Source: a virus. From it: 64,000 bases of DNA. The notes under the pieces were generated by a model. That model ran no database searches. It was not told the DNA's origin and saw nothing but the letters and a program-made list of their open reading frames with translations. Below are positions 3,441 through 46,752 of this stretch, piece after piece (positions within the stretch are counted from its first letter, which is position 1; each line of letters begins with the position of its first letter). The DNA lies in IMG/VR virus record IMGVR_UViG_3300008952_003529, one strand, 5' to 3'. The position numbers and the translations under genes are program-made.

Positions 3441-3554
3441 AGAAAAAAAATGCATTTCCTGTATGTACATTTAGTCTACGGTGATTAATTTTTATCTGTT
3501 CCCATGATATGGGACGCTAAGACCTAAGAATGACCAGTGGAGGTACAAAAAAAA

Positions 3555-5478: not shown

Positions 5479-6288
5479 ATGAATAAAACAATCGTACTAT
5501 TTGACATGGACGGTACGCTTACGCCGTGCCGAGAAAAGATCAAATCCCCTGTTATAGCAGCCCTACGTAAGCTTAACCCTCACACAAGAATCGGAATAGT
5601 GAGCGGATCAGACTACGATTACATTATGCAACAGTGCGCAGCTCTATTCGATTTTGGTGGTGTTGATCTAGATAATATTGATATTCTACCGTGCAATGGC
5701 ACAAAATTTTATAAATGGGATAAAACAAGTTTCAAGCTTACCCATAATAATGATATGAGAATGGCCTTGGGAAAAGATTCCGGTGGAGCTTCTCAATATC
5801 AAAAGCTTGTGAGAAGAATTACAACACTACAAAATGAGGCTGTCCTGGGTGTGCTAAAGGACACAACGCTTACTGGTACATTTTTACAGTACCGAGGTAG
5901 TTTACTAAACTGGTGCTTTGTGGGTCGAGATGCTGATACTTCTGTTCGTGAAGAATTCGAAAAAATAAATCGTCAACAAAAAGTACGCGTGTTCTATAAA
6001 AATAAGCTTGATAGATTTCTAAAAGATGAAAGTATGTTAGCGACATCGGCCCTTGGTGGTAAAACATCAATTGATATATACCCGCATGGGTGGGATAAAA
6101 CGTTTGCTCTTCAATATTATCCTGGGTGGACTGTGTATTTTGTTGGTGACGCATGTCAAGAGGGCGGAAATGATTGGCACATCTATCAGGCGCTAAAAGA
6201 CTTAGGAAGAAATTTCGATCGATCGTATTGGACAAAAAGTCCGGAGGACACTGTTAATATTATCGATCAGGTTATAGAAAGGCTGTAA
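5479..6288 (+). CDS. pmm: Eukaryote-type (HAD-IIB, PMM2/Sec53-like) phosphomannomutase
   Basis: FDMDGTLT, VSGSD, GGKTSIDIYPHGWDKT, FVGD...GGNDW.IY. Confidence 0.85.
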   Translation: MNKTIVLFDMDGTLTPCREKIKSPVIAALRKLNPHTRIGIVSGSDYDYIMQQCAALFDFGGVDLDNIDILPCNGTKFYKWDKTSFKLTHNNDMRMALGKDSGGASQYQKLVRRITTLQNEAVLGVLKDTTLTGTFLQYRGSLLNWCFVGRDADTSVREEFEKINRQQKVRVFYKNKLDRFLKDESMLATSALGGKTSIDIYPHGWDKTFALQYYPGWTVYFVGDACQEGGNDWHIYQALKDLGRNFDRSYWTKSPEDTVNIIDQVIERL

Positions 6289-6316
6289 ATCTGCACGAAA
6301 AACGTTACGATATAAT
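6285..6316 (+). promoter_or_regulatory. Putative promoter GTAAATCTGCA-N15-TATAAT
   Basis: The same 11-mer at the same spacing recurs at 44524. Confidence 0.55.
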
Positions 6317-6328
6317 GTTGGAGAGTGC

Positions 6329-7957
6329 ATGAGTTTTACATACGATAAATATTTCCCATATCCCGCAATTCGTGAACAACAAACTGAGGCTATAGACTTC
6401 ATTTTAGATTCGTTTATCAATCAAAATAAGAAGTTTGTTATTCTAGAAGCCGGTACGGGTGTAGGAAAGAGCGCAATTGGTTTAACTGTTGCACGTTATT
6501 TGGCAGCCAATTGGATCGCTAGTGGTGATAAGTCTTCTGGTGCATATTTTCTTACAACACAAAAGATCCTTCAGCAACAATATACGAAAGACTTTGGTGG
6601 CTTTTCTGGCCCAATGAAGTCTATTATGTCATCTGCCAATTACACATGTTCTTTTAACAAAAAGACGACATGCGCTGAAAGTCTTCGAGCGTTAAGAACA
6701 TCTCAAAAGGGCACGCCATTTTGGAGGTCTTGTACTTTTAATTGTGTCTATAGAAAAGCTAAGGAAGACTTTCTCGAATCCCCAGAAGGCGTAACTAACT
6801 TTCCGTATTTTCTTGCTGAGACTCAATATGCTGGAAAGCTTAAGCCAAGACAGATGGTCATTATTGATGAAGCACATAATGCAGCTGCTCAACTAAGCAA
6901 ATTTATTGAGATAACAATTTCTGATAAATTTTGTCAATCATTTTTAAAGTTTTCCCTGCCTGCGAAAGGAACAGCAAAACAATACATCGACTGGATTACC
7001 GACACCTACGTACCGGCGATTAGTTCACGGCTTAAACATCTTGAGCAGATGATGGGAAAATATATTGGACTAGCAGATAAAATAAAGAGCGGAGAATTCG
7101 CTAGTATTGCAAAGAAATTTGAAATGCTAGATAAACATGTCTGTAAGGTTCGTAGATTTTTGCAGCTGTATTCATCAGACAACTGGGTGCTTAATGAGAT
7201 AGCTGCAGACGGTAGGTCTGGTAGGAAGGTCGAATTTAAGCCTATTGACGTGGCTCCCTTTGCTGAGGAAATGCTATTGAATTTTGGTGACCGGGTCCTC
7301 TTAATGTCTGCAACGATTCTGGATGCTGAAGCGTTCATAGAGCTGCTTGGTATAGAAAAAGACCAATGTGCATTTATTTCCATGCCCAGCCCGTTTCCAG
7401 TTGAAAACCGTCCAGTATTTTATTCAGGCATGGGAAAGATGAGCTCCAAGACTATTGAGACAACGTTGCCAAAGATGGCGCAAGCTGTTACGGCAATTCT
7501 GGAGCAGCACAAAGATGAAAAAGGAATTATCCATTGTCACTCTTACCGGGTGGCGAATTACTTGAAAAAGAATATCAAAAGCCGGCGACTCTTGTCTCAT
7601 AACTCAGAGAATAGAGAAAAAATACTCGAAAAGCACAAGAGGTCTAAAAGCGCGACTGTGCTATTATCTCCGTCTATGACAGAGGGTGTCGATCTTCATG
7701 GTGATTTAAGCAGGTTTCAGATTGTCTGTAAGATCCCATATCCATATCTTGGAGATAAACTAATACGAAAAAAGATGAATAAATGGAGATGGTGGTACCC
7801 ACTCCAGACAGCCAAAACGATTGTACAGGCTGTTGGTAGGTCTGTTCGATCCAACGATGACACGGCAGTAACGTATATACTGGACTCCGATTGGGAAATA
7901 TTTTATTCTAGAAACAAAAAAATGTTTCCAAGTTCATTTAAGGAGTCTTTGAAGTGA
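6329..7957 (+). CDS. DinG/Rad3-family SF2 helicase with Fe-S cysteines
   Basis: EAGTGVGKS, DEAH, MSAT, EGVD, QAVGRSVRSNDD; four Cys in the Fe-S region. Confidence 0.9.
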   Translation: MSFTYDKYFPYPAIREQQTEAIDFILDSFINQNKKFVILEAGTGVGKSAIGLTVARYLAANWIASGDKSSGAYFLTTQKILQQQYTKDFGGFSGPMKSIMSSANYTCSFNKKTTCAESLRALRTSQKGTPFWRSCTFNCVYRKAKEDFLESPEGVTNFPYFLAETQYAGKLKPRQMVIIDEAHNAAAQLSKFIEITISDKFCQSFLKFSLPAKGTAKQYIDWITDTYVPAISSRLKHLEQMMGKYIGLADKIKSGEFASIAKKFEMLDKHVCKVRRFLQLYSSDNWVLNEIAADGRSGRKVEFKPIDVAPFAEEMLLNFGDRVLLMSATILDAEAFIELLGIEKDQCAFISMPSPFPVENRPVFYSGMGKMSSKTIETTLPKMAQAVTAILEQHKDEKGIIHCHSYRVANYLKKNIKSRRLLSHNSENREKILEKHKRSKSATVLLSPSMTEGVDLHGDLSRFQIVCKIPYPYLGDKLIRKKMNKWRWWYPLQTAKTIVQAVGRSVRSNDDTAVTYILDSDWEIFYSRNKKMFPSSFKESLK

Positions 7958-8463
7958 AGGTATATGATACGGTAGAAAGCTTTAGAATAGAAGTTGATGA
8001 TAGTGATATATGGGGGAAGGGTGTTCCAGTGTATATGACGAGCGGAGGCTTTGATCCGCTGCATGTAGGGCACTTGAGGTGTATTTTAGCGACTGCGGAG
8101 ATGGCAGACGAGGATGGTGGCTATGTTGTTATCATTGTTAATGGCGATGGTTTCTTGGAAAGAAAGAAAGGCAAGCCGTTTATGAAAGCAGAAGAACGTG
8201 CCGAAATTATCGCTGGTATAAGAGGGGTCGATGCTGTTATTATTTGGGACGACGGTGGTCAAACTGTAACAGGAGCCATTGCGGCGCTCAAACCAACATA
8301 TTTCACAAAAGGGGGAGACAGAGCTGCTCCGAAAGATATTCCAGAATGGGAAATATGCCAAGAGGTGGGCTGTAAGGTTATATTTAATGTTGGTGGTGGC
8401 AAAGTGCAAAGCTCATCATGGCTGATCGAAGCACAGGAGTTAGCAAAGAATGCAAAAGATTGA
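7954..8463 (+). CDS. Cytidylyltransferase-like (HxGH) nucleotidyltransferase
   Basis: SGGFDPLHVGH, KGGDR, KVQSSS. Confidence 0.85.
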   Translation: MKVYDTVESFRIEVDDSDIWGKGVPVYMTSGGFDPLHVGHLRCILATAEMADEDGGYVVIIVNGDGFLERKKGKPFMKAEERAEIIAGIRGVDAVIIWDDGGQTVTGAIAALKPTYFTKGGDRAAPKDIPEWEICQEVGCKVIFNVGGGKVQSSSWLIEAQELAKNAKD

Positions 8464-8469
8464 TAAGTC

Positions 8470-8898
8470 ATGTTAGGAAAAGATTTTATGGGCGCCGGAT
8501 TTTTCATAGTCAATCCTTCTTCAAATCTCTTGCTAGCGCTTGTCGATAATAATGGGTTATATGATTTTCCTAAGGGTACGAAAGACAAAGAAGAACAACC
8601 ACTAGAAACTGCCCGACGGGAATGCTTCGAAGAGTGCTCTATCCTCATAGAAGAAGATGAGCTAATGAATTGTGGACCATTTTTTGATGGCAAATTATTT
8701 TTGTTTTGTGCTGAAACTGAAAAGCATCCAGCAATATTACGAAATGCAAAATCTGGTATCATAGAACATTCAGGATATGCATGGGTTAAACCTGAAGAAT
8801 TTTTGGCTAAGTGTGTACCATATCTCCAACCCATCACCAAGAAAATCTTCTTAGAGCTATCAAAGCGTGCACATCCCTTAGTCGCAAGTTATATTTAA
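8470..8898 (+). CDS. Nudix hydrolase (Ap4A-hydrolase-like)
   Basis: DFPKGTKDKEEQPLETARRECFEE Nudix box. Confidence 0.85.
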   Translation: MLGKDFMGAGFFIVNPSSNLLLALVDNNGLYDFPKGTKDKEEQPLETARRECFEECSILIEEDELMNCGPFFDGKLFLFCAETEKHPAILRNAKSGIIEHSGYAWVKPEEFLAKCVPYLQPITKKIFLELSKRAHPLVASYI

Positions 8899-8924: not shown

Positions 8925-10109
8925 ATGATGTCAATTTTCCAAAGACATAAAACGGTCGCTGATCGCTCCGCTGGGGACCGTGCGAGGCATCGAAAGAAAA
9001 TCGAGAGAGCCATCAAAGATGGCATCTATAATATTGTTGCTGAAGAATCGATTATTGGGAAAGAGGGAAAGAAAAAATTTCGTATTCCTGTACGAGGAAT
9101 TAAAGAGTATCGATTTGTATACGGTGATAACGGTTCAAGAAGAGTAGGCTCTGCTCAAGGGAAAGATGTTAAGCGCGGGCAGGTGATTGGCAAAAAAGAA
9201 GAAAAAGGGCAAGGGCAAGGAAATCAGGCTGGTCAAGAAAAGGGAGAAGAGTATTACGAGGTAGAGCTTACGCTTGATCAACTTGCAGAATATCTTTTTA
9301 AAGATCTAAAGCTCCCTAATTTTGAAAAGAAAAAGAACACTAATGTCACATCTAAAAAAATAAAAAGACACGGGTATAGAACAAAGGGAATTCGGCCGAG
9401 GCTTGATAAAAAGAAGACAGTGATTGAAAAGCTAAAAAGAAAGAACAAGCGAAAGCTGATCATGTCACAACCTGAGTTAAATGAGGATGTTGACGAAACA
9501 AATGAATTTCCTTTTAATGAGAAAGATTTACGATATCGTCACTACAAGGTTCATGAAAAGAAAACGTCTAGTGCCGTTATATTCTTTTTAATGGACATTT
9601 CTGGATCTATGACAAGACAAAAGAAGTTTTTAGCAAGAAGCTTTTTCTTTTTGTTATACCATTTTATAAGGGCAAGGTATGACCAAGTGGACCTGGTGTT
9701 TATTGCTCACGATGTTGAGGCTCATGAAGTAACAGAAGACCAATTTTTTGGACGTGGATCATCGGGTGGAACATTGGTTTCTAGCGCATTAACAATGACT
9801 GAGGAGATTATTTCAAAAAGATATCACCCAAATAGCTGGAACATCTATGCATTTCAATGCTCTGACGGTGACAACTGGCCGACCGATAATGAAAGAGCAA
9901 TCGAACTAGCAAAGAAAATAGTTCAAAAAGCACAATTCTTTGGGTATTGTCAGATCGAGCCCAGTGAAGAAAGAGCTAGCTTCATCCGTGAAAATTCTTT
10001 ATCAGAAATATACGCACCGTTGATAGGTCCAAACTTTAAGGTAGCAGAGGTTTCTAGCAAGGAGCATATCTGGCCAGCTTTTAGATCATTCTTTGGGGGT
10101 GAATTATGA
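8925..10109 (+). CDS. yeaH: YeaH/YhbH (DUF444, UPF0229) vWA-domain protein
   Basis: DRSAGDRARHR, FRIPVRGIKEYRFVYG, LMDISGSM, HDVEA.EV, GGTLVSS, SDGDNW. Confidence 0.92.
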   Translation: MMSIFQRHKTVADRSAGDRARHRKKIERAIKDGIYNIVAEESIIGKEGKKKFRIPVRGIKEYRFVYGDNGSRRVGSAQGKDVKRGQVIGKKEEKGQGQGNQAGQEKGEEYYEVELTLDQLAEYLFKDLKLPNFEKKKNTNVTSKKIKRHGYRTKGIRPRLDKKKTVIEKLKRKNKRKLIMSQPELNEDVDETNEFPFNEKDLRYRHYKVHEKKTSSAVIFFLMDISGSMTRQKKFLARSFFFLLYHFIRARYDQVDLVFIAHDVEAHEVTEDQFFGRGSSGGTLVSSALTMTEEIISKRYHPNSWNIYAFQCSDGDNWPTDNERAIELAKKIVQKAQFFGYCQIEPSEERASFIRENSLSEIYAPLIGPNFKVAEVSSKEHIWPAFRSFFGGEL

Positions 10110-11413
10110 GCTCAAATTTTCTAAGCATGCTTGAAGAGTGGGACGAAAAAATTATCAAACTAGCTGAAGGACATGGTTTGGACTGGTATCCAATCCTGTA
10201 CGAAACGTGTGATTACTACGAGATGATTGGAAATATGGCATATCACGGAATGCCCACACATTACCGTCATTGGAGCTTTGGAAAATCTTTCGAGCGTACG
10301 CACGCTATGTATAATGCCGGCCTTGAGGGATTGCCCTATGAGTTAATCATTAACAGCAACCCATCAATAGCTTACCTCATGGAAGAAAACCCATTTTATC
10401 TACAAGTCCTTATCATGTGTCATTGCGTTGGCCATTCAGATTTTTTCAAAAATAATATAACATTTGCAAACACTCATGCTGATAATGTGCTATTGAGGAT
10501 GCGAAATGCGAAGAGGTTTGTCGATGGTCTTATCGAGGACCCAAGCATCGGCGTGAAGAAAGTAGAAAATATTCTAGATGCCGCGCATGCTTTGTCACTC
10601 CAAATTCCTCGTCGTTATAGAATGTATGATTCCCAGAAGAATCAAAAGAAGGCTCTTATTTTGGACATCAAGCAGGGAAAATATGAAGATGATTTTCCTC
10701 CGGATCCACGGGCGATTCCTGTTAGCCCAGAGCCTAATATTTTGGCATTCCTTGCAGAGTGTAGTCCTGTCCTTGATGATTGGGAACGTGAATTACTGTA
10801 CTTCGCTTTAGAAGACGCAGAGTATTTTATGCCACAGATTAGAACAAAAATAATGAATGAGGGGTGGGCTTCTTACTGGCATTTTAGAATGATGCATGAG
10901 CTTGAGCTTCCCGACTCAATGCACCTTCCTTTTTTAAAAATGCACAATGAAGTCGTCAGACCTCATCTTGGGAGTATCAACCCATATCACCTTGGATTCC
11001 ACCTTTTTAGAAAAATTGAAGAGCGCCACGGACTAGAAGAATGTTTTATTGCTAGAGAGTCGCTCAATGATGAATCATTTATCAGACAGTATCTTACCGA
11101 AGAAGATTGTGTTGATCTAAACCTATTTTCGTTTGGTTTGGACAAGAAAGAATTCGTGATTGAAGATGTGTCTGACAACGAGGGGTGGAAATCAGTAAAA
11201 CAAAACCTAATCAAACAGGTTTCTGCTAATAATATTCCATCAATCGTAGTGGAAGGTGTAGACGAAGCGAATATTCTAACTTTAAGGCATGAACATGATG
11301 GACGTGATTTAGAATTAGAATACGCGGAATCTGTAGTCGAACACATTACGACGTTGTGGGGAGATGTTGTTAGACTTGAAACAATTATTGAAGATGAACC
11401 ATTCGAGATTTAA
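10106..11413 (+). CDS. spoVR: SpoVR/YcgB family protein
   Basis: GMPTHYRHWSFGKSF, LPYELIINSNP, HCVGHSDFFKNN, TKIMNEGWASYWH, NPYHLG. Confidence 0.95.
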   Translation: MSSNFLSMLEEWDEKIIKLAEGHGLDWYPILYETCDYYEMIGNMAYHGMPTHYRHWSFGKSFERTHAMYNAGLEGLPYELIINSNPSIAYLMEENPFYLQVLIMCHCVGHSDFFKNNITFANTHADNVLLRMRNAKRFVDGLIEDPSIGVKKVENILDAAHALSLQIPRRYRMYDSQKNQKKALILDIKQGKYEDDFPPDPRAIPVSPEPNILAFLAECSPVLDDWERELLYFALEDAEYFMPQIRTKIMNEGWASYWHFRMMHELELPDSMHLPFLKMHNEVVRPHLGSINPYHLGFHLFRKIEERHGLEECFIARESLNDESFIRQYLTEEDCVDLNLFSFGLDKKEFVIEDVSDNEGWKSVKQNLIKQVSANNIPSIVVEGVDEANILTLRHEHDGRDLELEYAESVVEHITTLWGDVVRLETIIEDEPFEI

Positions 11414-11426
11414 GACGGAGTAATCG

Positions 11427-13355
11427 ATGCCAAAGAGCAAGTATCTTGACATTATAAACAGTCAAAGAAAAAAGAAGACCTCAAAAAAGTTTGAGGGTAC
11501 TTTTTTGGATTATCTTACGTTAGTGGAGAAAGACCCCACCTTAGCTGATCATGCGCACAAAAGATTGTACGATGTTATTTCAGCAGAGGGAATTTCTACG
11601 CTTGATGATGATGACCCAAGAAAGCATAAGTTGTTTAATAGCGAAAGTGTGAAAGTGTATGACTATTTCTCAGAAGAATTCTTTGGAATGGAAAATACTA
11701 TTTCAAAGTTAATGAGGTTCCTTCGCTCTGCATCCTTAAAGGGCGAAGAGAGTCGACAGGTTCTTTTGTTGATGGGCCCTGTAGGAGCTGGAAAGTCTGC
11801 ACTAACTGAACATATCAAGTCAAGTCTTGATGGTGTACAGTATTACCACTTGAAAGATGATCCCCAGCGAGGCGATCCACTTCAGCTTATTCCCAGATCA
11901 CTGAGAAAGAAGTTCAGCAAGCTACTCAAGGTGGCCATCGATGGTGATATTTCTCCTATAGCACGTCACCTTTTATTTGAGACGTATGAAAAGGCTTATG
12001 AGTCATTTGAAGTCGTAGAGACTACATTTTCTCAGCGTGCTCGTCGAGGGATTGCAACTGTACCACCAATGGACGCGAATAGTCAAGACGTATCAGTGCT
12101 TATTGGTTCAGAAGATATATCAAAGCTTGACAAATATTCTGAGGATGATCCTCGGGCCCTGTCATTAAACGGAGCATTCAACGTTGGTAACAGAGGTATT
12201 GTCGAACTTGTGGAGGTCTTTAAAAACGAAATTGAGTTTCTCCATACAATCATCACTGCGACACAGGAGAAGAGGATTCCAGCCCCTGGAAAGCATGATA
12301 TGCTTCACTTCGATGGTGTTATCTTAGCGCACTGTAACGAATCAGAGTGGAACCGTTTTCAAAGTGAGCATACCAACGAAGCAATTTTAGATCGTGTTGT
12401 TAAAATTGAAGTACCATATGTTTTAGAACTTGAACAAGAAATAAAGATTTATGAAAAGATCTTAGGAAGGTCCAACTTTGATTCTCATATCGCTCCTCAC
12501 ACTCTTCGAATTGCGTCGATGTTTTCAATCCTAAGTCGTCTCCATGCGAGCCAAAAGTGCGATCTTCTCACAAAGATGAAAATTTATAATGGGGAAGATG
12601 TTGTAGAGAAGGGAAGAGTAAAGAAAATTGACATTAGAGATCTCCGGGATGAAGCTCCAAGAGAGGGTATGCAAGGAATTTCAACCAGGTTTATCATGAA
12701 GGCGGTTGATAATGCCTTAAGCGATTCAGACAAGGATTTCATAACTCCCATTTCGATGCTTGACTCTCTAATAAAGCAAGTAAAAGATCAAATCGTTGAT
12801 TTAGATTTTCAGAACCATTGTCTAGACTTGATTAGAAACACAGTACGAGATGAATATCTTCGTATGCTCGAAAATGAAATAGCAAAAGCGTTTATTACAG
12901 CCTACGAAGAACAGGCACAAGCAGTATTCGAAAACTATCTTGACAATGCCGAGGCATTCACCACAAGCTCAAAAATGAAAGACAGAATTACAAAAGAAGA
13001 AATGCAACCGGATGAAACGTTTATGAGAGCGATTGAAGGTACGATCGGTGTAAGTAGCTCGGGCAGAGAGGGGTTTAGGGCTGACGTGACAGCTTATATG
13101 TTCTCTAAGATGCGTAGAGGTGAAAATGTTGATTATACTTCTTATGAGCCTCTAAAAGAAGCTATCGAAACATACCTCATCACATCTGTGAAGGATCTGG
13201 CTAGAATCGTTACAAAGACGAAAACCAGAGATGATGAGCAGAAACAAAAGTACTCAAGCATGGTACAAACACTTATGGACGAATATGGTTATACACCGGA
13301 GTCAGCAGAAGAAATACTGGTCTTCGCGAGTAATAATCTATGGAGAGATAGCTGA
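11427..13355 (+). CDS. prkA: PrkA/YeaG family AAA+ ATPase / serine kinase
   Basis: Walker A GPVGAGKS, GAFNVGNRGIVELVEVFKN, ATQE, EAILDR, EGMQGISTRF. Confidence 0.95.
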   Translation: MPKSKYLDIINSQRKKKTSKKFEGTFLDYLTLVEKDPTLADHAHKRLYDVISAEGISTLDDDDPRKHKLFNSESVKVYDYFSEEFFGMENTISKLMRFLRSASLKGEESRQVLLLMGPVGAGKSALTEHIKSSLDGVQYYHLKDDPQRGDPLQLIPRSLRKKFSKLLKVAIDGDISPIARHLLFETYEKAYESFEVVETTFSQRARRGIATVPPMDANSQDVSVLIGSEDISKLDKYSEDDPRALSLNGAFNVGNRGIVELVEVFKNEIEFLHTIITATQEKRIPAPGKHDMLHFDGVILAHCNESEWNRFQSEHTNEAILDRVVKIEVPYVLELEQEIKIYEKILGRSNFDSHIAPHTLRIASMFSILSRLHASQKCDLLTKMKIYNGEDVVEKGRVKKIDIRDLRDEAPREGMQGISTRFIMKAVDNALSDSDKDFITPISMLDSLIKQVKDQIVDLDFQNHCLDLIRNTVRDEYLRMLENEIAKAFITAYEEQAQAVFENYLDNAEAFTTSSKMKDRITKEEMQPDETFMRAIEGTIGVSSSGREGFRADVTAYMFSKMRRGENVDYTSYEPLKEAIETYLITSVKDLARIVTKTKTRDDEQKQKYSSMVQTLMDEYGYTPESAEEILVFASNNLWRDS

Positions 13356-13609
13356 TGTTAAGATTTGGATTTAGCGAAGCGTTGCTTATGTTTGCTGGAA
13401 TTGCTTTATGGCATAACCAAATGTTTGCAATAATCGCATTTTGTATGGCTTGCTTTGTTGCATTCGCAAGATTTTCGCTAGAGTGGTCGCTAAAGTCTAA
13501 AGAAACCGAAGCGAAGGTGCAGGCCTCAAAGCTATTAAATGAGCAAGTTCAAGAAGTCGGTGATGTACTTGGGACTATGTTCGGTAAAAAGAAATCCACG
13601 ATGCACTGA
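13355..13609 (+). CDS. Small two-TM membrane protein
   Basis: Two hydrophobic N-terminal segments and a charged C-tail; ATG overlaps the prkA stop. Confidence 0.65.
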   Translation: MLRFGFSEALLMFAGIALWHNQMFAIIAFCMACFVAFARFSLEWSLKSKETEAKVQASKLLNEQVQEVGDVLGTMFGKKKSTMH

Positions 13610-13617
13610 GATGTACA

Positions 13618-14949
13618 ATGAGACACTACGCCTCAGTATACTCAGGTGACGAAGCAAAAAAAATAACTCGGGACGCTCGACAGGCTATACGTGATGTAAT
13701 TCAAAGCTTGCAATCTTGGGAAAGCTCCATGATAGTTGGGAAAAGGCTTTATACCTTCGGTTGGCCTGATTCTTTTCGACTCTTGATAGAGGGGCTTGAT
13801 AATTGTCCTTTAGTGTATAGAAACCTCGTTCTTAATTCAGCAGAGGCCGTTTATCGACGATGTCCATTAGCGGTATCGCTTTATCTTATCACTTTGGAAA
13901 AAATGCTAGCAGGCCGACTTGCTGATGCTGCTCAGTTACAAGAGACAATAGATCAGCTGGTGATTAATCGAAGAAGGATATCGTCTAAGGAAGCAAAAAG
14001 CGCTTGGCGAAAGACAATACATGATGACTTTACTCGCGAAATATTTGAAGATTTATCATCTGCTGTCGATAAGACTGGAGCGCTCGGAACAATAGAGGTC
14101 AAAGGAGGCAGATATTCTAATGTTGAAATATACGAAGGCATTTCTGTTGCTGCTAAGCTAGCGCCGGCTTTTCAATCTCAAGTTGCAGGAATAATTCACT
14201 TAACAGACTGTAAGGTTGTGATTGTTGATGGAGCAATTCTTGACATTAGTGAATTAAATAGATTGCTTGTTTACGCTAACGAGAGTAAATCAAGCATTGC
14301 AATTTTTGCTTCGCAATTCTCAGATGATATATTAAATACCCTGATCGTTAATTGGAACAACGGACGTCTCAAGGCAGTTCCAATAATCTTTGAAAGTACC
14401 CTGAACGATCTTAATCAACCTGGAGATGTTGCAACAGTCGTAGGAGGAAGGTTAATATCAAAAGATTGTGAATATTCCATAACACTCCTTAACGAGGAAG
14501 AGTTACCCACTATCAAAAGCATAACTGTGAACAATATTTCGAAAAAATGTGATCTAATTTTAGATTCTGATGGTTTGTCTAGGGCATTTTTTCTAAGAAA
14601 TGAAATTCAAAAAAAGCGTGAAAAAGAAAAGATAGAAGATGTCAAGAATATCCTGAGCGCAAGACTAGCGAAACTAACAAGTAGAAAAACTATTATAACG
14701 ATTAAATGCGATATTGAAGAATCTGGAATTGTTAAAGATAGAATTTCCGACTTATTTTCTTTTATAAAATGTTGTGCAAATGAGAGCATAGTTTCTGGAG
14801 CTTCAATCTATTCAGCGGTAGAACAACAAGACACAAGCGGTCTTCCAGCTTTCTTACCCGCTTTTTCTGCAAAAATTGCCATTTTTAAAGCGATCGCAGA
14901 TGCTGAGCAGATAAACAAAATTGGAGCGCTAATACTGATGGATTATTGA
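13618..14949 (+). CDS. Degenerate GroEL/Cpn60-like protein lacking ATP-binding motifs
   Basis: Collinear similarity to GroEL ([48 protein letters not shown]); GPKG and GDGTTT are absent. Confidence 0.8.
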   Translation: [443 protein letters not shown]

Positions 14950-15012
14950 CATCATGCAATGAATTTATTTACTTCTTTAGCCAGCAGGTTAAATTATGGA
15001 CAGAAATAAGGA

Positions 15013-15303
15013 GTGACTATAATGATGTCTAAACAGTCCAAAGCAGAACTAGCAAGGCAGGTCCAAGCGCTACAGGGCGAATTGGCCGAGTCGAAAACGC
15101 CAGGAGACTTACGAGAATTAATACATACTTTGATTAATTTTCTTAACGATGAAATTGGAAGAACGCTGGCGGAGTCGACAGACCCAGAGTGGTGTGGAAG
15201 CCGCAATATGGATATGTTGACAGTTGAGCAGGCAGAAACGTTGACAAACGTATTAAGCGAGCTTGTCAAGCAGTCTTCATTCGTAATACTTTCTAGAGCG
15301 TAA
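15013..15303 (+). CDS. Hypothetical protein (probable start ATG 15022)
   Basis: SD AAGGAG upstream; N-terminal coiled coil. Confidence 0.6.
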   Translation: MTIMMSKQSKAELARQVQALQGELAESKTPGDLRELIHTLINFLNDEIGRTLAESTDPEWCGSRNMDMLTVEQAETLTNVLSELVKQSSFVILSRA

Positions 15304-15306
15304 AGC

Positions 15307-15771: not shown

Positions 15772-16028
15772 AAACTATTCAGGGTAAATTAGAAAAACAA
15801 AAACAGACAAGGTGGCTGAATGAAACCAGACAATGTCGGGAGATTGTCCAAGAAATTTTATCATTTGGTGTGAATCAAGACCAGATAAAAAATGTTATAA
15901 AGTTGCTCGCACTTGAGCTTGAGGATGTGGAAATAATGAAAGCAATTTCACAAATTTTAATAGAAAATGTTAACGAGCAAGTGACTACCGTTAATATTCT
16001 TAAACCAGGAGGAAAAACAGATGAGTGA
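15768..16028 (+). CDS. Hypothetical protein
   Basis: ATGA overlaps within the operon. Confidence 0.6.
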   Translation: MKTIQGKLEKQKQTRWLNETRQCREIVQEILSFGVNQDQIKNVIKLLALELEDVEIMKAISQILIENVNEQVTTVNILKPGGKTDE

Positions 16029-16218
16029 TTCAAATAGTATTCTTGAGGGGTGGGAAAGCTTGAAGGAGCTTGTCAATTCCCTAGAGCTTGATATTCATAA
16101 GAACGCGAATGGAAACAAATCTGCCGGAGTACGTGCAAGAAGGGGTTTGCGTAAATTAAAGAATGACGCAAGTTCCTTAGTAAAATTGACACTAACCGCG
16201 GAAAAAAGTGAAAGTTAA
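16021..16218 (+). CDS. Histone H1-like Hc1-family small DNA-binding protein
   Basis: GNKSAGVRARRGLRKLK resembles the Hc1 GNKAA..RVR signature. Confidence 0.75.
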   Translation: MSDSNSILEGWESLKELVNSLELDIHKNANGNKSAGVRARRGLRKLKNDASSLVKLTLTAEKSES

Positions 16219-16256
16219 TTTCCACGCTAGTTAATCAATTCGTACTTTACTTTTGC

Positions 16257-16281
16257 AAAAAGGGGGGCTTACCCCCTTTTT
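16257..16281. terminator. Bidirectional Rho-independent terminator
   Basis: aaaaagggggg-ctta-cccccttttt between convergent genes. Confidence 0.85.
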
Positions 16282-16304
16282 CTAATTTCTGAGAGCTACA
16301 ATAG

Positions 16305-16613
16305 TTAGTTTTTGTGGTATGGCAACTTCAATTCTTTAAGAGTCTTGGGACACGCAGTTTTCAAAAACTGTTTCGCAGCTTTCTCAATTTGGCAAATACG
16401 CATCCTGGTGACGTCGAACATATCACCCACATCTTGAAGCGTATACGGTCCTTCGCGCGCTGCGAGAATCGTACAGTTATTATGTTCCCTCAAATCATGC
16501 CAATAGCGACATGAGCTTTTCTTACATGCTCTCCCCGATTCTTTGTGCGCCGCAAAACATGATACACCGTCGACTATTTCAGATAAGTCGTCTTGATCAT
16601 TTTTTGATTTCAT
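16305..16613 (-). CDS. Small Cys/His-rich protein with sigma70 region-4 HTH
   Basis: YTLQDVGDMFDVTRMRICQIEKAA matches sigma region 4.2; upstream C-x10-C-x4-C-x3-H-x7-C. Confidence 0.8.
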   Translation of the reverse strand: MKSKNDQDDLSEIVDGVSCFAAHKESGRACKKSSCRYWHDLREHNNCTILAAREGPYTLQDVGDMFDVTRMRICQIEKAAKQFLKTACPKTLKELKLPYHKN

Positions 16614-16617
16614 TTAA

Positions 16618-16665
16618 TCTCCTATTCAATGCGATTAATACATTTAACGTTATTTTAATAGGAGA
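16618..16665 (-). promoter_or_regulatory. Perfect 9-bp inverted repeat covering the SD of the sigma-r4 gene
   Basis: tctcctatt (16618-16626) / aataggaga (16657-16665). Confidence 0.55.
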
Positions 16666-16691
16666 GTACAATATTTTTCAAGGGAGTTATT

Positions 16692-17999
16692 TTGAAAGAC
16701 GATAGAAAGAAGTTTATTTTAGACACAAGCGTCCTGCTGTATGATAAAAAAGCTATCCATTCCTTCCCAGGAAACGATGTTATTATTCCCTTACAAGTTA
16801 TGGATGAGCTGGATCGATTTAAAGAAAAGCCAGGCATCGTTGGAGAGTCAGCCCGATATATCAACCGCTTTTTAGATGATCTACGAGCAGAAGGTCGCTT
16901 GGATAAAGGTGTAAACGTTCCACTCACCTATTCAGAAAATCAGACGATACGAATAACCCTTTGTGACGATCCTACACAACTCCCCAAAAGTCTCGCTCAT
17001 GATAGCGGAGACAATAGGATACTTGCGACATGCATGAGCGAGAGGTCTGTAGGGGACGGTGAGACCATTGTCGTGATTACTAAGGACATTAACCTAAGAG
17101 TTAAGTGCGATGCCCTTGGCATCCATTCTGAGGACTACTACAAGGACCATATAGAGGCGGGCCAGGTAGAATATGCTGGATGGCAAAAAAACATTGTATC
17201 TAAAGAAATAATCGACGAATTCTTTGTGAAAGGTAAAGTGTCCACCGCCGTTGATTTCTTTCCAAATGAGTTTGTGGTGCTTTGTGATGGAGGGAATTCT
17301 TCTGCCTTGACATTTCATCGTGCCGGATATCTCTACGCAATGAACAAGCGACCTGCTGAGCTTATGAGTTCATTTGAAGCAAAGAACAAAGAGCAAGCAT
17401 TCGCTGTGGAGGCACTTTTACGAGATGACATTCCTCTTGTAACGCTCACGGGATTAGCCGGCTCTGGCAAAACATATGTTACATTGATGGCTGGACTAGA
17501 TGGTGTGCAACAGGGGCGCTACAAAAGAATAGTAATAAGTCGATCAATCCAGCCAGTTGGAAAAGAACTTGGGTTTTTACCAGGTGATATGTCTGACAAA
17601 ATGCAGCCATGGTTAGCTCCTATCCTGGATAATTTCAGAACAATGCTAGCAGACAAAGACTACACATACTTTCAAATGATGAGAGACCGTGGGGAATTAG
17701 AGGTTGCACCGCTAGCGTACATAAGAGGAAGGACGTTTAACGATTCCTTTATCATTGTCGATGAAGCACAAAATGCGACCATACACGAATTAAAAACACT
17801 TATCACAAGAGTTGGTAAGGGATCAAAAATCGTTCTTCTTGGAGACACAGATCAAATTGATACGCCCTACATTAATAAATTAAGCAACGGATTATCAATC
17901 GTTGTCCACAAATTTAAGGATGAGAATGGTGCTGCACATATTAAGTTGGCAAAAGGACAGAGATCAAATATAGCTACTAGAGCTTCTGCTATCCTTTAA
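16692..17999 (+). CDS. phoH: PIN-PhoH ATPase (PhoH2/YlaK-like), TTG start
   Basis: PIN: LDTSVLL, DELD, DNRIL, TKDINLR; PhoH: GLAGSGKT, RGRTF, DEAQN, GDTDQID. Confidence 0.93.
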   Translation: MKDDRKKFILDTSVLLYDKKAIHSFPGNDVIIPLQVMDELDRFKEKPGIVGESARYINRFLDDLRAEGRLDKGVNVPLTYSENQTIRITLCDDPTQLPKSLAHDSGDNRILATCMSERSVGDGETIVVITKDINLRVKCDALGIHSEDYYKDHIEAGQVEYAGWQKNIVSKEIIDEFFVKGKVSTAVDFFPNEFVVLCDGGNSSALTFHRAGYLYAMNKRPAELMSSFEAKNKEQAFAVEALLRDDIPLVTLTGLAGSGKTYVTLMAGLDGVQQGRYKRIVISRSIQPVGKELGFLPGDMSDKMQPWLAPILDNFRTMLADKDYTYFQMMRDRGELEVAPLAYIRGRTFNDSFIIVDEAQNATIHELKTLITRVGKGSKIVLLGDTDQIDTPYINKLSNGLSIVVHKFKDENGAAHIKLAKGQRSNIATRASAIL

Positions 18000-18034: not shown

Positions 18035-18388
18035 ATGTCTAATGCGAGAACTAAAAAGTACAATAGAAATCGTTATCGAAAGGTCTACCAACCGGTTCGA
18101 GCGTTACCTAATTGGGGCATCCGGTCCGATAAAGAAGTAGTATTAGAGACCCTTCGAGTTCAATTCAACGGCGGTGATGAACGCACATTCGTGTTACTCG
18201 GCAGGTATAAGACACTTCCAGGAATCGTAGTGACCCCTGTCGGTGACCTTGCTGATGTGAATATATTCATTTCAGCGCTTTCTCTCGGTAGTGTTCCATA
18301 CGACGGAGGTAAAGAAGTATCCATTACTCTCAGCGCTAGTACCGCATTTGAGGGTGAAGTAATCGTACAGGCAATGATGATAGCATGA
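18035..18388 (+). CDS. Small beta-rich virion protein (putative)
   Basis: First gene of the fibre operon; similar to the termini of ORF 18385. Confidence 0.6.
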   Translation: MSNARTKKYNRNRYRKVYQPVRALPNWGIRSDKEVVLETLRVQFNGGDERTFVLLGRYKTLPGIVVTPVGDLADVNIFISALSLGSVPYDGGKEVSITLSASTAFEGEVIVQAMMIA

Positions 18389-19611
18389 TATTCAATCAAA
18401 GTGAGCATGAGCTGCAATACGGAATCATTGAGATAAAAGATGGTAAAGATAGCTTTGTCTTAGCTGTATCTGGGTCAAAAGAATTTGAACCTTCAATTAT
18501 TTTGACTCCCTATGGTATTAATGCCAACTTAAATACATTCGTGATGGGTCCTTGTAAGTGGGGGTCGCTTGTATTAGAGCCAGATGATGGACAAAATGTA
18601 TACGATCTAAACCAGACATGGCGAGCCAAATCAAATCTAGCAGAATATGACGCTAAAGCAAATCTCAAGGTATGGTGGAGACTAAATGAAAAACCGCTCA
18701 GCTTGGTGGACTTGGTCATCGCGGATTCTTCTGGAAATGGAGTTAACTCAATAGGCCAAAACCAAAATAACCAAAAGCCGGATAGGTCGTTGTCAACTCC
18801 ATCAACGTACATAGCTACAACAACTTTAGATTTCGAAAATACCGTCGGTGGCGCAGCCCATGGCAACGTAGCTTTTTTCAAGGCGAGTTATTGGAACAGT
18901 CTTGTTGGTGGAGAAGGTCCGACAACAAATGGTGGCACCTCAGGTCCTGGGAATTCGATGTCTATATCTTTTTGGTTTAGACCGTTGGACTGGACCGAGA
19001 ACAATGATGGCCAGATAATCTTTCTTGCTGGTGATAACGTCGGAGCAGGATCATTTCGGGGGGTCGTAATGTCTACTAACGGCAGCTCTTTTAAGGGTAT
19101 TCGTATCGGATGGAATGCTGGATTGCCGAAGGACAACTCATACGCTGGAACAAATTTTGCTGGCTCGTATAACGTTGCATTAAACACCTGGCATCATGCA
19201 GTCATAACAAGATCTGGGGCAGAATGGTCTGGTTCTGATTGGGTTGGTGGTAATCCTTACAAATTTTATCTAGACGGCGTCGAATACACAGATGTCACAT
19301 ATGCAGCAGTTGGAGGAGGTGGAATTAAACCTAATCCGATTGTAGAGGCAGGTTCTCCAAACGCTCGTCTCGGCTACAACAGCGTCCATGGATTCAGTGG
19401 CGATTTATCAGATTTTGCGATCTGGGATACAGAATTAACAGCTACACAAGTCGAGGCGCTATATGGTACGGCAGCGTCTGGTGTCGAAGATGCAGAAACA
19501 ATTAGAGCGAAGGGTGACGTCTGGTGGGCAGTCATAAAGAGATCCACAGATATCGGAGACGTTAACGTTCAATATCAGGCCATTGGGGCCTCTCCATTAA
19601 GGGTGAAGTAA
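18385..19611 (+). CDS. LamG/concanavalin-A-like domain virion protein
   Basis: KVWWRLNE, SISFWF, NTWHHAVIT, FYLDG, FSGDLSDFAIWDTELTATQVEALY. Confidence 0.85.
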   Translation: MIFNQSEHELQYGIIEIKDGKDSFVLAVSGSKEFEPSIILTPYGINANLNTFVMGPCKWGSLVLEPDDGQNVYDLNQTWRAKSNLAEYDAKANLKVWWRLNEKPLSLVDLVIADSSGNGVNSIGQNQNNQKPDRSLSTPSTYIATTTLDFENTVGGAAHGNVAFFKASYWNSLVGGEGPTTNGGTSGPGNSMSISFWFRPLDWTENNDGQIIFLAGDNVGAGSFRGVVMSTNGSSFKGIRIGWNAGLPKDNSYAGTNFAGSYNVALNTWHHAVITRSGAEWSGSDWVGGNPYKFYLDGVEYTDVTYAAVGGGGIKPNPIVEAGSPNARLGYNSVHGFSGDLSDFAIWDTELTATQVEALYGTAASGVEDAETIRAKGDVWWAVIKRSTDIGDVNVQYQAIGASPLRVK

Positions 19612-19612: not shown

Positions 19613-22600
19613 ATGGCAAAAGATTTTAGAAGTAATCAAATAAGAACAATAAAGCTTATCGGTTCCGGTGGAGTGAATATAACAAAGCCCTATCTGGGAC
19701 TGCTAATTTATAGTTCTTCTGCTGCAACAAATTATGATGGTGGTCATGAAGCAAAAATGCTACAAGACGTCGGCGATGACGTATGGATGTTTGTAAGCGG
19801 TTCTGCAAATACCACTGCATACATTGCAACACAGAAGCCCTCCGGAGGGTCCGTTCTTTTTGGTGGGGATGTCGTCGTAAGCGGAACGTTGTACGCTGAA
19901 AGACAGGTAATAGAAGTCGACTCAAGTGTTGACGGGGATCTTCTGGTTCCCAATTCAATAGCAGGCGGTATTAAGGGGATGTCCACTGCCGGTGGAAACT
20001 ATGCGAAGCTTCTTGTTGATCCTTTTACACAAAATCTTGGAAAAGTTGGACCCCAAGCCCAACAGAAAGATGGCACTGTCTCCTTTAATATAGTAGCAGG
20101 ACCCGGGGAAGGAAATGCATGGAGGTATGATGGCTCTCTAAAAGAAGACGTTTTCTTTCATGTTTCTGGAAGTCGAGGTGTAAGAGACACAAGACAAAGA
20201 GGCTTGGCTCTTTTTGATGGCGATCTCCATACGTCTGGTAACCTCAGTATGTCACCGGACTCAGTATGGACCACAGACATTATATTAGACAATTCTACTA
20301 ACGACCCGCCAATATTTGCTCAACAAAATGGGTTCGGAAAACGCTGGACAGAAATTGCTGTCCAGCAGAAAGGTTTTGGTCAGTTTGATGTTGAGATAGC
20401 GAACTCTGGATCTGACGTTGATAGTAATTTAAAGTTCAAGACTAGAGCGGGTCATTCCGGGGAATACTCTATGGTATTTTCTGGATCAGGTGATCTAGGG
20501 CTGGATAGACCCTCTATGGGTCCTCGAAATCTTATATTGGACGGCGCGCGCCAAACACGTATTTCCTCAGAGTGGGATAGTGTTACTGATGGTATGCAGC
20601 TAACACTTGAAGGAGCAGCAGATGGTAATGCCTCCATAATCTTTAATAAGTCAAATATAACAGGTTCAGGTGGGTATTATCTAAAAGCGGGGAGCATTGC
20701 CGCCGGGATGGGGGGCCAGGCTCTTGGTTTCCAATTTACTGGTGGTGGCTCTGCTGGGACGACCACTGCGGGACTTTATTATAATAGGAGCGGGTTCGGG
20801 CTACAAAAGCACCCTATTCTTCAAGGCCCAAATGATGCGCTGGTTATGACGTCAGCAAATGCTGGTGAGAAAATGCACATCGGTGCTGCAAAGGTGGAGG
20901 TCTGGGGACTGGAGAATGGGATTGAAATCAATGCATCCCACCCAACCTGGATAGACCAGGTCGGCGGTCCGATTTTGATGAGGGCAACCGGTTCCCATGC
21001 CGACGGTGGTGGAGTTGATATATGGGGTGATGTTCGTATGCGAGACAGTTTAGAGATTGATGGCAATCTTACTGTCTGGGGCGATAAGATCATTGGTCAC
21101 GTAATATCAGCATCAATATCTGATCCACTGTTGCTACTAAACTCTGGTGCGGTATCCTCTGGTACACCAGGTCCTGGTGGCGGTATGAATCCATCAGGTG
21201 GCGGTATCGCCATCGCATCAGGATCTACGTACATCGATCAAGCGATGGTTTTTGGTAGATATGTCCATAATAGCATAAAGAACACTTTCTTTGCTGGAAG
21301 GATGGACGTTAAAAATGGCGATGAATTACGATTTGATGGCGCTGAACCTATCCGAATGCTCGCGGCGGGGTATCGCTTTACTGGTGAAAGTACACCCCAG
21401 GCAGAAACGAACTTTTTGTTAACTGGCTCTGGCGGGGTGACAATACTTTCTGGTAGTCGCTTCGCGCTTGAGTCTGGTAAACCATGGTTCTTTAGTGATA
21501 TAGGCACGAAAACAGGCGCAGCTCCTCCAGGCTCTTACTACATGGTCTATGATAATACAGACCCAAGCCCGGGAGTTCCTGATCTGCAACTGCATATTGG
21601 AACAGGTAGCTTTACGATAAACGCTGATCCCAGCACAGCTTCGCAATTATTTCTCGGGGCATCCAAACATACTTTATGGGAAGATGACCCGACTGGTTTT
21701 GGCGAGACAAAGTTTCTTACAGACAAACAGCTAATTGTTTCTTCATCTGATGGCTTGGTACTTTCGACGTCTAATAATGATCTCGTAGTGTCAGCTTCCG
21801 CACCTATCGGTCCCAATCCCGCCATAAGGGTGCGAGGCGGAAACGTCTTTGTTAACACAACAAATAATAATGGCAAGATCGAGATTACATCGAATAAGCA
21901 ACTTAAGTTATCTTCTTCAAACATAGACGGAAAAGTTCTCGTTACAGCAGGGGAAACCGCTGGATATGACGGTGGACAACTAGACTCAGCGCAGCTTTAT
22001 CTTTCAGGAGGTATTGTTGATCCCCTGGGATATAACGGCAGAATAGGTGCTGCGTTTGTAAACACTCCCATACTAGAATCAAAGTCCATTATAGAAACTT
22101 ATCCCGATATTAACTTCTTTGTTTCCGGTTCAATAGACAGTCGTCAGTCGACCCACCGCGGGGTAGGTGTATTCGGCGGGGACTTGGTCGTATCAGGTAC
22201 TGCAAAGGTGGGCGCGCTAGCGATCGATAACCTCGTCTTAGAAGGTGCCGCTGTTGGTCAGCCATTCATTAGATTCGGGTTAACAACCGATTCTCCAAAG
22301 GTGTATCATAACGCTGGGAACCTTACATTTTTTGATGACTATATTACGACCCCTGGATACACACTAACACAAATAGCTGCAAGAGGTGTTGAGTTAAACA
22401 ACAACATTTGGAAAAACACATATGCTGGTGGCGGCGGGGATTTTGGTAGCTATCTTGCTACAAGTGGTGCTGTATCGTTTGATTTTGACCAAAATTGGGC
22501 AGGTACACCAGATCCGTATGTTCCAAAGCGCACAAATAGCCCGGGATTCGGTGGTTCAGACGTATTCTTTATTATTAGTGGTTCGAAGGGTGGTAAAAGT

Positions 22601-23416
22601 GCTGAGCACGAAAGAAGCACGTCAGTCTTTCGTGGTGATCTTCTCACATCAGGAGCCATGTATTGGGCAAGAATATCAACAGCGATGGCCGCAGCGCAAG
22701 TGGTCGGACCCGATGCAGTCTCAGTTTACGCCAAAGATGTAAGTGGAGAGACAAGACTATTTTACAGAAATGAAGTTAACGAATTACCGTTAGGCGCAGG
22801 CGGTAGCCTGGACGATGCTTATGATACCCCAACTGGTGGCGGCTTAAAATCGACTGCCGCGGGAGCCGTTGTTGAAGTGGACGGCCGTCCGGTTCAATTA
22901 GAGGGAACAATCTCAAGTGGATCACCGGTTGTGTTAGTGACATCAGGGTCGGTGGCTCTTATTTCATCTGATAACAGCACTCCACCCAGCATAATTTGCG
23001 ATACAGATGATAAAGCGGGTGGTGTCGATTTAGAATTCAAAATAAACAAGACCGGACCGCTAATGACAAAAGTATTTTCGTTGTCAGGCGGATCCGCTAA
23101 TCTAGTTATGAACAACAATGCGTTATTAGCGTGGAATCAATCAGAGACTGAGGCGATTCTAAAATATAAAAATGATCCAGCTGCCAGCATATCTCACGGA
23201 ATAGGAACCAAACACTTCTTACCTGACGCTGACAATACCTATAATCTTGGAACACCAAACTTTCGTTGGGCAAACCTATATACCGGTGACCTCCACTTAA
23301 AGAATGAGCGTGGTAACTGGACCATACTTGAGGAAAGAGACTATCTATGTGTAATAAACAATATTACAGGGAAGAAATACAAGATGGCACTCGAGCCGTT
23401 GGAGGATGACGAATAA
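19613..23416 (+). CDS. Long tail fibre / appendage protein (1267 aa)
   Basis: G/S/T-rich, internal D.xFxVSGS...FxGDxxxSG repeats; C-terminal NTYNLG...WANLYTGDLHL...NNITGKKYK motif of the kind seen in phage fibres. Confidence 0.75.
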   Translation: MAKDFRSNQIRTIKLIGSGGVNITKPYLGLLIYSSSAATNYDGGHEAKMLQDVGDDVWMFVSGSANTTAYIATQKPSGGSVLFGGDVVVSGTLYAERQVIEVDSSVDGDLLVPNSIAGGIKGMSTAGGNYAKLLVDPFTQNLGKVGPQAQQKDGTVSFNIVAGPGEGNAWRYDGSLKEDVFFHVSGSRGVRDTRQRGLALFDGDLHTSGNLSMSPDSVWTTDIILDNSTNDPPIFAQQNGFGKRWTEIAVQQKGFGQFDVEIANSGSDVDSNLKFKTRAGHSGEYSMVFSGSGDLGLDRPSMGPRNLILDGARQTRISSEWDSVTDGMQLTLEGAADGNASIIFNKSNITGSGGYYLKAGSIAAGMGGQALGFQFTGGGSAGTTTAGLYYNRSGFGLQKHPILQGPNDALVMTSANAGEKMHIGAAKVEVWGLENGIEINASHPTWIDQVGGPILMRATGSHADGGGVDIWGDVRMRDSLEIDGNLTVWGDKIIGHVISASISDPLLLLNSGAVSSGTPGPGGGMNPSGGGIAIASGSTYIDQAMVFGRYVHNSIKNTFFAGRMDVKNGDELRFDGAEPIRMLAAGYRFTGESTPQAETNFLLTGSGGVTILSGSRFALESGKPWFFSDIGTKTGAAPPGSYYMVYDNTDPSPGVPDLQLHIGTGSFTINADPSTASQLFLGASKHTLWEDDPTGFGETKFLTDKQLIVSSSDGLVLSTSNNDLVVSASAPIGPNPAIRVRGGNVFVNTTNNNGKIEITSNKQLKLSSSNIDGKVLVTAGETAGYDGGQLDSAQLYLSGGIVDPLGYNGRIGAAFVNTPILESKSIIETYPDINFFVSGSIDSRQSTHRGVGVFGGDLVVSGTAKVGALAIDNLVLEGAAVGQPFIRFGLTTDSPKVYHNAGNLTFFDDYITTPGYTLTQIAARGVELNNNIWKNTYAGGGGDFGSYLATSGAVSFDFDQNWAGTPDPYVPKRTNSPGFGGSDVFFIISGSKGGKSAEHERSTSVFRGDLLTSGAMYWARISTAMAAAQVVGPDAVSVYAKDVSGETRLFYRNEVNELPLGAGGSLDDAYDTPTGGGLKSTAAGAVVEVDGRPVQLEGTISSGSPVVLVTSGSVALISSDNSTPPSIICDTDDKAGGVDLEFKINKTGPLMTKVFSLSGGSANLVMNNNALLAWNQSETEAILKYKNDPAASISHGIGTKHFLPDADNTYNLGTPNFRWANLYTGDLHLKNERGNWTILEERDYLCVINNITGKKYKMALEPLEDDE
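19778..22660 (+). repeat. Four dispersed ~33-aa protein repeats in the fibre
   Basis: DVWMFVSGS..VLFGGDVVVSG (19778), DVFFHVSGS..ALFDGDLHTSG (20147), DINFFVSGS..GVFGGDLVVSG (22106), DVFFIISGS..SVFRGDLLTSG (22559). Confidence 0.75.
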
Positions 23417-46748: not shown

Positions 46749-46752
46749 TAAT

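Follow-up and report, generated by a model that had tools for sequence, protein, structure and literature searches.

We analysed the first 64,000 nucleotides (nt) of a virus record from IMG/VR (IMGVR_UViG_3300008952_003529), a stretch referred to below as the window. The open reading frame (ORF) at 13618..14949 on the plus strand encodes a protein of 443 amino acids (aa) plus stop, P0001. Profile comparisons and structure prediction identify P0001 as a homologue of the chaperonin GroEL, and the residue alignment shows that it has neither a nucleotide pocket nor an inter-ring contact surface. We refer to it and its relatives as mini-GroELs. The gene is under purifying selection and is not decaying. 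We propose, giving the idea about an even chance, that mini-GroEL would form a single ring and, nucleotide-free, act as a binding holdase or adaptor within a set of phage proteostasis proteins. The whole record measures 75 kb and has a CheckV completeness of ~21%; it therefore covers part of a jumbo phage genome of roughly 300 kb, from an uncultured marine giant phage lineage.

Standard family scans did not detect P0001. The Pfam scan gave no PF00118 match at E≤1, a six-frame search of the record likewise gave none, and a PHROG scan returned no significant match. With phmmer, the PDB sequences matched by P0001 were GroEL/Hsp60 chains (E 1.5e-11; P0001 107-397 with GroEL 124-417), and a 12-sequence family profile matched PDB at E 1.7e-14. 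When a 150-sequence profile was compared with a GroEL profile by hhalign, the E-value was 1.7e-38 (probability 99.95, residues 42-397). We then modelled the protein as a monomer with AlphaFold2 (AF2). Using the 150-sequence alignment, the predicted local distance difference test score (pLDDT) was 94.6 and the predicted template-modelling score 0.86. This run superseded an earlier one with 12 close sequences only, in which the pLDDT was 54.8 and the apical domain was disordered.

A Foldseek search of PDB with the model gave a best E-value of 2.4e-23 and at least 500 matches at E≤0.001, and all matches among those listed were GroEL/Hsp60/Cpn60 chaperonins. VIA-align placed 427 of the 443 residues at Z 24.1, with model residues 3-443 on the mtHsp60 8g7l chain 0-524 and on GroEL 2-525. 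Apical-domain crystal structures superposed on the model with a root-mean-square deviation of 2.1-2.3 Å over 176-179 residues (VIA-align Z about 21-22). In BFVD, the best fold matches were viral GroELs, from Bacillus phage AR9 and from uncultured viruses. Because the Foldseek, VIA-align, apical and BFVD results agree, we consider all three GroEL domains to be represented, and we conclude that P0001 is a real GroEL homologue with the equatorial-intermediate-apical Cpn60 fold. Fold and topology are common to the whole P0001 chain and the group I chaperonins GroEL/Cpn60/Hsp60 (PF00118; 1AON, 4AAQ, 8G7L; Z 21-24). The initial annotation had described a full-length GroEL homologue from alignments made by eye and had suggested checking the predicted fold against Cpn60. 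The homology holds, the predicted fold is that of Cpn60, and the by-eye alignments were reproduced by a global profile-profile alignment. The term full-length is only partly appropriate: the three domains are all represented, but P0001 is 105 aa shorter than Escherichia coli GroEL.

The global alignment paired P0001 2-443 with residues 1-525 of E. coli GroEL (groL from NC_000913.3), which is the same span as in the structural alignment. On this basis the chain comprises an N-terminal equatorial remnant (aa 1-132; 13618..14013), in which the model and the alignment retain a strand at 4-9, the stem-loop hairpin at 37-46 and counterparts of GroEL helices A-E. It continues with a first intermediate-domain segment delimited by hhalign (aa 133-173; 14014..14136) and an apical domain supported by structural alignment, residue map and family frequencies (aa 174-355; 14137..14682). 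A second intermediate segment (aa 356-390; 14683..14787) includes D378 at the position of the catalytic D398. The chain ends with a C-terminal equatorial remnant (aa 391-443; 14788..14946), placed by model and global alignment, in which the final helix and the terminal strand persist. All five segments are on the plus strand.

The nucleotide site is lost almost completely. T30 of GroEL is replaced by L31 of P0001, G32 by Gln, K34 by Ser, K51 by Pro, D87 by L84, G88 by Ala, I150 and S151 by Thr and Ile, G415 and G416 by Ala and Ser, and D495 by L413; P33, T89-T91, I454 and Y478-A481 are deleted. Aspartates of the site remain only at the positions of D52 (D51 in P0001) and D398 (D378), and the D378 column is not conserved among close homologues and is variable across the family. 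At the level of motifs, LQSWES (31-36) stands in place of LGPKGR, RCPLAVS (81-87) together with a 4-residue deletion in place of AGDGTTT, and SIVSGAS (390-396) in place of GVVAGGG, so that GGG has become GAS. The main deletions correspond to GroEL 107-116 (10 aa) and to about 427-488 (~62 aa of the C-terminal equatorial part), and the GGM tail is absent. The second deletion takes out N479-A481 as well as E434, R452, E461, S463 and V464. With A109, all six inter-ring contact positions lie within deletions. We conclude that P0001 has neither the nucleotide pocket nor the surface by which GroEL rings contact each other. The three motif replacements, the erased ATP site and the shortened C-terminal equatorial part had been read from the letters in the initial annotation; each was borne out by the alignment, with the D52 and D398 equivalents as the only listed site residues that are neither substituted nor deleted.

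The same losses characterize the family. Across 150 family representatives the ATP-site positions are non-conserved or hydrophobic, and the median number of residues after the start of the C-terminal equatorial part is 54, compared with 115 in GroEL. Compared with group I GroEL, then, P0001 is the shorter protein, its nucleotide loops, inter-ring residues and GGM tail are gone, and it falls below Pfam detection. By hidden Markov model score, ATP site, inter-ring contacts and tail it is outside canonical GroEL, while the fold is common to both.

This distinguishes P0001 from the phage chaperonins described so far. EL gp146, OBP gp246, AR9 gp228 and the virioplankton GroELs are, like P0001, viral GroEL homologues, and no co-chaperonin gene was found near P0001. 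They are about 520-560 aa long and keep the ATP site; P0001 has 443 aa and has lost it. EL gp146 has an ATP-dependent cycle (PMC7185714), and virioplankton GroELs conserve 21 of 25 ATP/Mg-site positions (Marine et al. 2017; PMC5649160), the latter in agreement with the earlier statement that known phage chaperonins retain their ATPase.

Another possibility is that the gene is a pseudogene in decay or an ORF that arose by chance, and the blindness of PF00118 to P0001 could be taken to favour it. We found eleven full-length homologues of 443-449 aa (50-98% identity) with intact frames throughout. By the Nei-Gojobori method, the ratio of non-synonymous to synonymous substitution rates (dN/dS) was 0.17 against the 98%-identical and 0.12 against the 76%-identical homologue, and it ranged from 0.09 to 0.31 among three regions of the gene. 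The low dN/dS, the intact frames of all 12 close homologues, the hundreds of family clusters described below and the confident AF2 model refute decay or chance, to which we assign practically no probability. The gene is intact, and neither the frameshifts nor the neutral decay that the initial annotation had named as refuting its reading were seen across homologues.

To define the family we searched 1.84 billion representatives of 50%-identity clusters exhaustively with phmmer; 985 matched at E≤1e-3, of which 215 reached E≤1e-10. The best 150 matches were nearly all 370-510 aa long, and in a motif scan none of them had GDGTTT, GPKG or GGG at the GroEL position except three true GroELs; the short matches without these motifs numbered roughly 145. 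The ATP motifs are likewise missing from all 150 aligned members. PF00118 was matched by one of 110 family members, a true GroEL of 533 aa, and phrog_5725 ('chaperonin groEL') by 96 of the 110. When ten members were scanned singly, the short ones matched phrog_5725 only in the intermediate-apical part, at roughly positions 100-450 of 540. We considered phrog_5725 as a family of mini-GroELs and rejected it, as it represents true GroELs. In the ESM Atlas, the nearest clusters are labelled 'hypothetical protein' and are 100% Viruses, and the family contexts examined were all virus-like contigs of 67-302 kb. The mini-GroELs are a family in their own right, characterized by a length of about 370-510 aa, a GroEL apical/intermediate core, loss of the motifs, a C-terminal equatorial part that is shortened, and location on phage contigs.

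In a maximum-likelihood tree, 41 sampled members fell on one side of a branch with a Shimodaira-Hasegawa-like approximate likelihood-ratio test (SH-aLRT) value of 100. A distance of ~3 substitutions per site lies between the mini family and the GroELs of bacteria and phages, the intact-GroEL clade of this phage lineage among them; the tree was quick and unrooted, and a long-branch caveat applies. The length and support of the branch that separates the family from all GroELs mark the mini-GroEL lineage as old and fast-evolving rather than a recent broken copy.

Among cultured phages we found no mini-GroEL at the sensitivity of tblastn. A tblastn search of 50,697 cultured-phage records with P0001, P0066 and P0075 returned only canonical motif-bearing GroELs or nothing; the GroELs of Vibrio phage 207E48.1 and Cellulophaga phi14:2 carry GDGTTT and GGG. 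The region had no megablast match among cultured phages, and cultured-phage homologues of the window's PrkA are only about 30% identical; the phage lineage itself is uncultured. The literature searched, with a coverage that was incomplete and in which absence is no proof, contained no description of a phage GroEL family that has lost the ATP site.

With the ATP site and the ring-ring contacts gone, the conserved parts may indicate what the protein still does. In GroEL, the N-terminal strand, the stem-loop hairpin and the C-terminal strand form the inter-subunit sheet within a ring. The monomer model contains the corresponding strands of P0001 (4-9, 37-40, 43-46 and 437-442), which are highly conserved in the close family, and for this reason oligomerization is probable: mini-GroEL would assemble as a single ring through the kept intra-ring sheet elements. 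Conservation in the close family peaks in the equatorial remnant, where segments 47-97 and 412-442 score 0.78-0.89 (47-97 alone: 0.78-0.87) against 0.67 overall. A new motif, CPLAV.LYL, conserved in the close family, occupies the former P-loop site.

The apical domain is retained as well. The equivalents of T261, N265, D291 and R368, structural invariants of group I GroEL that P0001 shares along with the terminal strands and the stem-loop, occur in all or all but one (149-150) of the 150 representatives. In P0001 the positions of F204, L237, L259, V263, V264 and N265 are kept, and Y199, Y203 and L234 have become Lys, Ala and Asn, respectively, so that five of the eight hydrophobic groove positions are kept. 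Across the 150 representatives the L237, L259 and V264 positions are mostly hydrophobic, and that of F204 is hydrophobic in the family. These substitution patterns suggest that the canonical groove between helices H and I has been remodelled and not simply preserved.

The apical domain of P0001 aligns with the engineered GroEL 'minichaperone' (residues 191-345/376; 1KID, 1LA1, 3VZ6) at Z about 21. This isolated GroEL apical domain reportedly had ATP-independent chaperone activity in vitro in the work of Zahn et al. in 1996. An apical domain that works without ATP could thus serve as a holdase. Unlike that monomeric fragment, P0001 is a natural protein that has kept its intermediate domain and part of its equatorial domain, for which reason it is probably oligomeric. 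A precedent is provided by the vertebrate BBS6, BBS10 and BBS12 proteins, which are group II and CCT-related: they have the chaperonin fold and divergent nucleotide sites, and work with an active chaperonin. P0001 belongs to the other chaperonin group, is viral and not eukaryotic, has deletions and not insertions, and has no direct kinship with them.

The initial annotation had recommended looking for an intact groEL/groES in the rest of the genome. No intact GroEL or GroES was found in the window's own 75-kb record, from which ~79% of the genome is missing, and the search succeeded in the relatives. A 254-kb relative (G002, 75% complete) has both a mini-GroEL that is 51% identical to P0001 and an intact GroEL of 527 aa with the motifs MGPSGK, AGDGTTT, PGGG and VDP. 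Further intact GroEL orthologues (PF00118) are encoded on contigs of 302,493 bp and 289,811 bp, the same contigs as mini-GroELs P0011 and P0005; the assignment to these contigs was made by record names. Thus the two proteins occur together in all three large relatives (254-302 kb). Their sequences are 22% identical, and in these relatives mini-GroEL is an addition to the intact phage GroEL and did not arise from it by recent copying. A search for Cpn10 in G002, the one large relative covered, found none. In the 302-kb (L027) and 290-kb (L028) relatives, the intact GroEL adjoins genes for a 5'-3' exonuclease, a full-length sigma-70 factor (regions 1.2-3) and a peptide deformylase in a conserved block.

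The co-occurrence bears on the idea that mini-GroEL is a dead subunit in mixed rings with the intact GroEL of the phage, tuning its allostery or client range. Such hetero-rings, one of four functions offered in the initial annotation, gain support from the three large relatives, from the intra-ring strand elements retained in the model and from the lack of Cpn10 in G002. They are difficult to reconcile with the long, fully supported branch between the two families and the low identity to the presumed partner. Moreover, the equatorial domain is about 70 residues short, so that subunits would pack unevenly, and a record that is 61% complete and carries a distant family member has no GroEL. A dead subunit of this kind would be analogous to the non-hydrolysing chaperonin-like subunits that work with CCT. 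We regard mixed rings as a real but rather doubtful alternative.

With lower probability still, as something of a long shot, mini-GroEL could be one dedicated half of a viral chaperonin made of two parts. As a single ring free of nucleotide, it would dock on the GroES-less, ATP-driven phage GroEL as a lid or client-delivery adaptor, perhaps completed or anchored in the membrane by the 84-aa protein encoded upstream; a paralogue would then replace the co-chaperonin.

A GroEL encoded by the phage itself is also at odds with a shutdown of chaperonins, as would be expected of a decoy that titrates the GroES of the host or poisons its GroEL rings. The helix H/I positions are partly retained, but the GroES/substrate-contact positions L234, Y199 and Y203 are replaced. 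The GroEL/GroES inhibitor put forward in the initial annotation finds no support here, and we consider a decoy highly improbable.

We also examined the genes around mini-GroEL. In the window it is preceded by genes for HSP20 (3537-4010), a trypsin-like serine protease (4624-5430, minus strand), PMM, a helicase, a cytidylyltransferase, a NUDIX protein, YeaH/DUF444, SpoVR, PrkA and an 84-aa protein, in this order. The YeaH(DUF444)-SpoVR-PrkA cassette (8925..13355, plus strand) was identified by Pfam at E 1e-114 to 1e-131. The 84-aa ORF (13355..13609, plus strand) encodes a protein whose first 40 aa are hydrophobic and whose tail is charged and helical; it has no Pfam match. HSP20, the protease, the PrkA/SpoVR/YeaH genes and mini-GroEL make up a stretch rich in proteostasis functions, and its conservation extends to relatives.

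The position of mini-GroEL could indicate that it belongs to the PrkA-YeaH-SpoVR module, its ring being remodelled in trans by the AAA+ ATPase PrkA. The genes are tightly packed: the stop of PrkA overlaps the start of the 84-aa ORF by 1 nt, and 8 nt separate that ORF from mini-GroEL. A terminator scan from PrkA to mini-GroEL gave no convincing site: the weak candidates nearby fall within the reading frames of PrkA and mini-GroEL themselves. A strong one first appears at 16257-16281. The order PrkA, 84-aa ORF, mini-GroEL recurs at nine loci (L001-L004, L010, L013, L014, L016 and L017), with 240-302-kb marine contigs included. However, the distant members P0075 (L007), P0086 (L008) and P0052 (L009) have no adjoining PrkA, PrkA cassettes of cells and cultured phages are not known to carry a GroEL-like gene, and the search of cultured phages with P0001 gave only true GroELs. 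The PrkA cassette is context and not an obligate partner. These exceptions weaken the PrkA-driven ring of the initial annotation, which we now regard as very improbable.

The constant neighbour in this sub-lineage is the 84-aa hydrophobic ORF, not PrkA. Its homologues lie directly upstream of mini-GroEL in L001, L003, L010, L013 and L014 and also in L009, where PrkA is missing (39% identity, E 8e-18); it is absent beside the more distant members in L007 and L008. As a GroES analogue the 84-aa protein was rejected, given its lack of a Pfam match, its hydrophobic N-terminus and its charged helical tail.

Its conservation directly upstream, with or without PrkA, is one reason to consider that mini-GroEL has abandoned the chaperone role and that its GroEL fold now serves as a platform for specific binding or for structure. 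The 84-aa protein might tether it to the membrane, and assembly, the takeover of the host and the timing of lysis are examples of processes in which it could take part. The polar character of groove positions 234 and 263 in the family and the replacement of the P-loop by CPLAV.LYL in the close family point in the same direction. In contrast, the small ORF is missing beside the L007 and L008 members, the equivalents of L237, L259, V264 and F204 are still hydrophobic, and the neighbourhood is rich in proteostasis genes. On balance we consider such a platform unlikely.

This leaves the passive holdase or adaptor. An ATP-driven folding cycle would not be expected of mini-GroEL, and since such a cycle is impossible without ATP, passive binding of partners or clients via the conserved, partly re-polarized apical face appears most likely. 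It would work alongside HSP20, the trypsin-like protease, the PrkA module and the intact GroEL encoded elsewhere in the genome, and the 84-aa protein may join in its action. Among the four functions offered in the initial annotation, we still find a holdase or scaffold that works independently of ATP the most plausible. Several observations weigh against this interpretation. Family position 234 is His, Asp or Asn and position 263 is mostly Lys, Ala or Arg in the 150 representatives, and a groove that is only partly kept argues for a specific partner over generic unfolded clients. As the window's own record has no intact GroEL, the pairing with one is extrapolated from relatives, and PF00118 had no match in the 61%-complete record of the distant family member. 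A sub-alignment search of the distant branch covered eight loci in records that are 12-61% complete and found PF00118 in none, a result of little weight for the pairing.

Downstream of mini-GroEL, the window contains three small ORFs (96, 154 and 86 aa), followed by genes for an Hc1 histone-like protein (16021-16218), a sigma-70 region-4-only protein (16305-16613, minus strand) and a PIN-PhoH fusion (16692-17999). The strong terminator, a bidirectional terminator-like hairpin, lies between the first two of these genes. The block 16021-17999 is conserved near mini-GroELs even in the distant jumbo-phage contigs L007 and L009. In most relatives, an RNaseH_like gene (PF04308, 157-160 aa) directly follows mini-GroEL (L001 11332-11805, L009 2917-3399, L010 9347-9823). 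It is missing in the window (14950-15306) and in its two closest relatives, L016 and L017, where an ORF of 92-96 aa without family match is found instead (window 15013-15303). In L017 (1307-5738), a long-read contig with 2x coverage, DUF444, SpoVR and PrkA each appear as two separate ORFs, probably through sequencing error rather than decay; its mini-GroEL is intact and 76% identical.

Farther downstream, two ORFs of 1267 and 1354 aa (19613-27480) have counterparts of 1200-2148 aa in relatives; Pfam gave no match for the first and PHROG none for either. Laminin_G_3/concanavalin-like proteins of 408, 1201 and 872 aa, encoded at 18385-19611 and 56098-62321, are possibly fibres or adhesins. Glycosyltransferases (phrog_2170, phrog_13126) are encoded at 27668-29617 and 45501-47904 within a run of same-strand ORFs at about 27.6-48 kb. 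Together with PMM, the cytidylyltransferase and NUDIX (5479-8898), they suggest a phage sugar-modification pathway.

Taken together, our results describe a natural family with the architecture of GroEL in which the nucleotide pocket and the ring-ring interface have been deleted. This would be unusual, chaperonins being defined by their ATP-driven cycle. Mini-GroEL genes are at present annotated as 'hypothetical protein' and belong to no Pfam or PHROG family; a family model can be built from the present alignments. If mini-GroEL acts as a passive holdase, or as a partner of the phage GroEL encoded on the same genome, it would show how giant phages build a proteostasis network of their own, and the chaperonin field would gain a natural minimal GroEL that is free of ATP.

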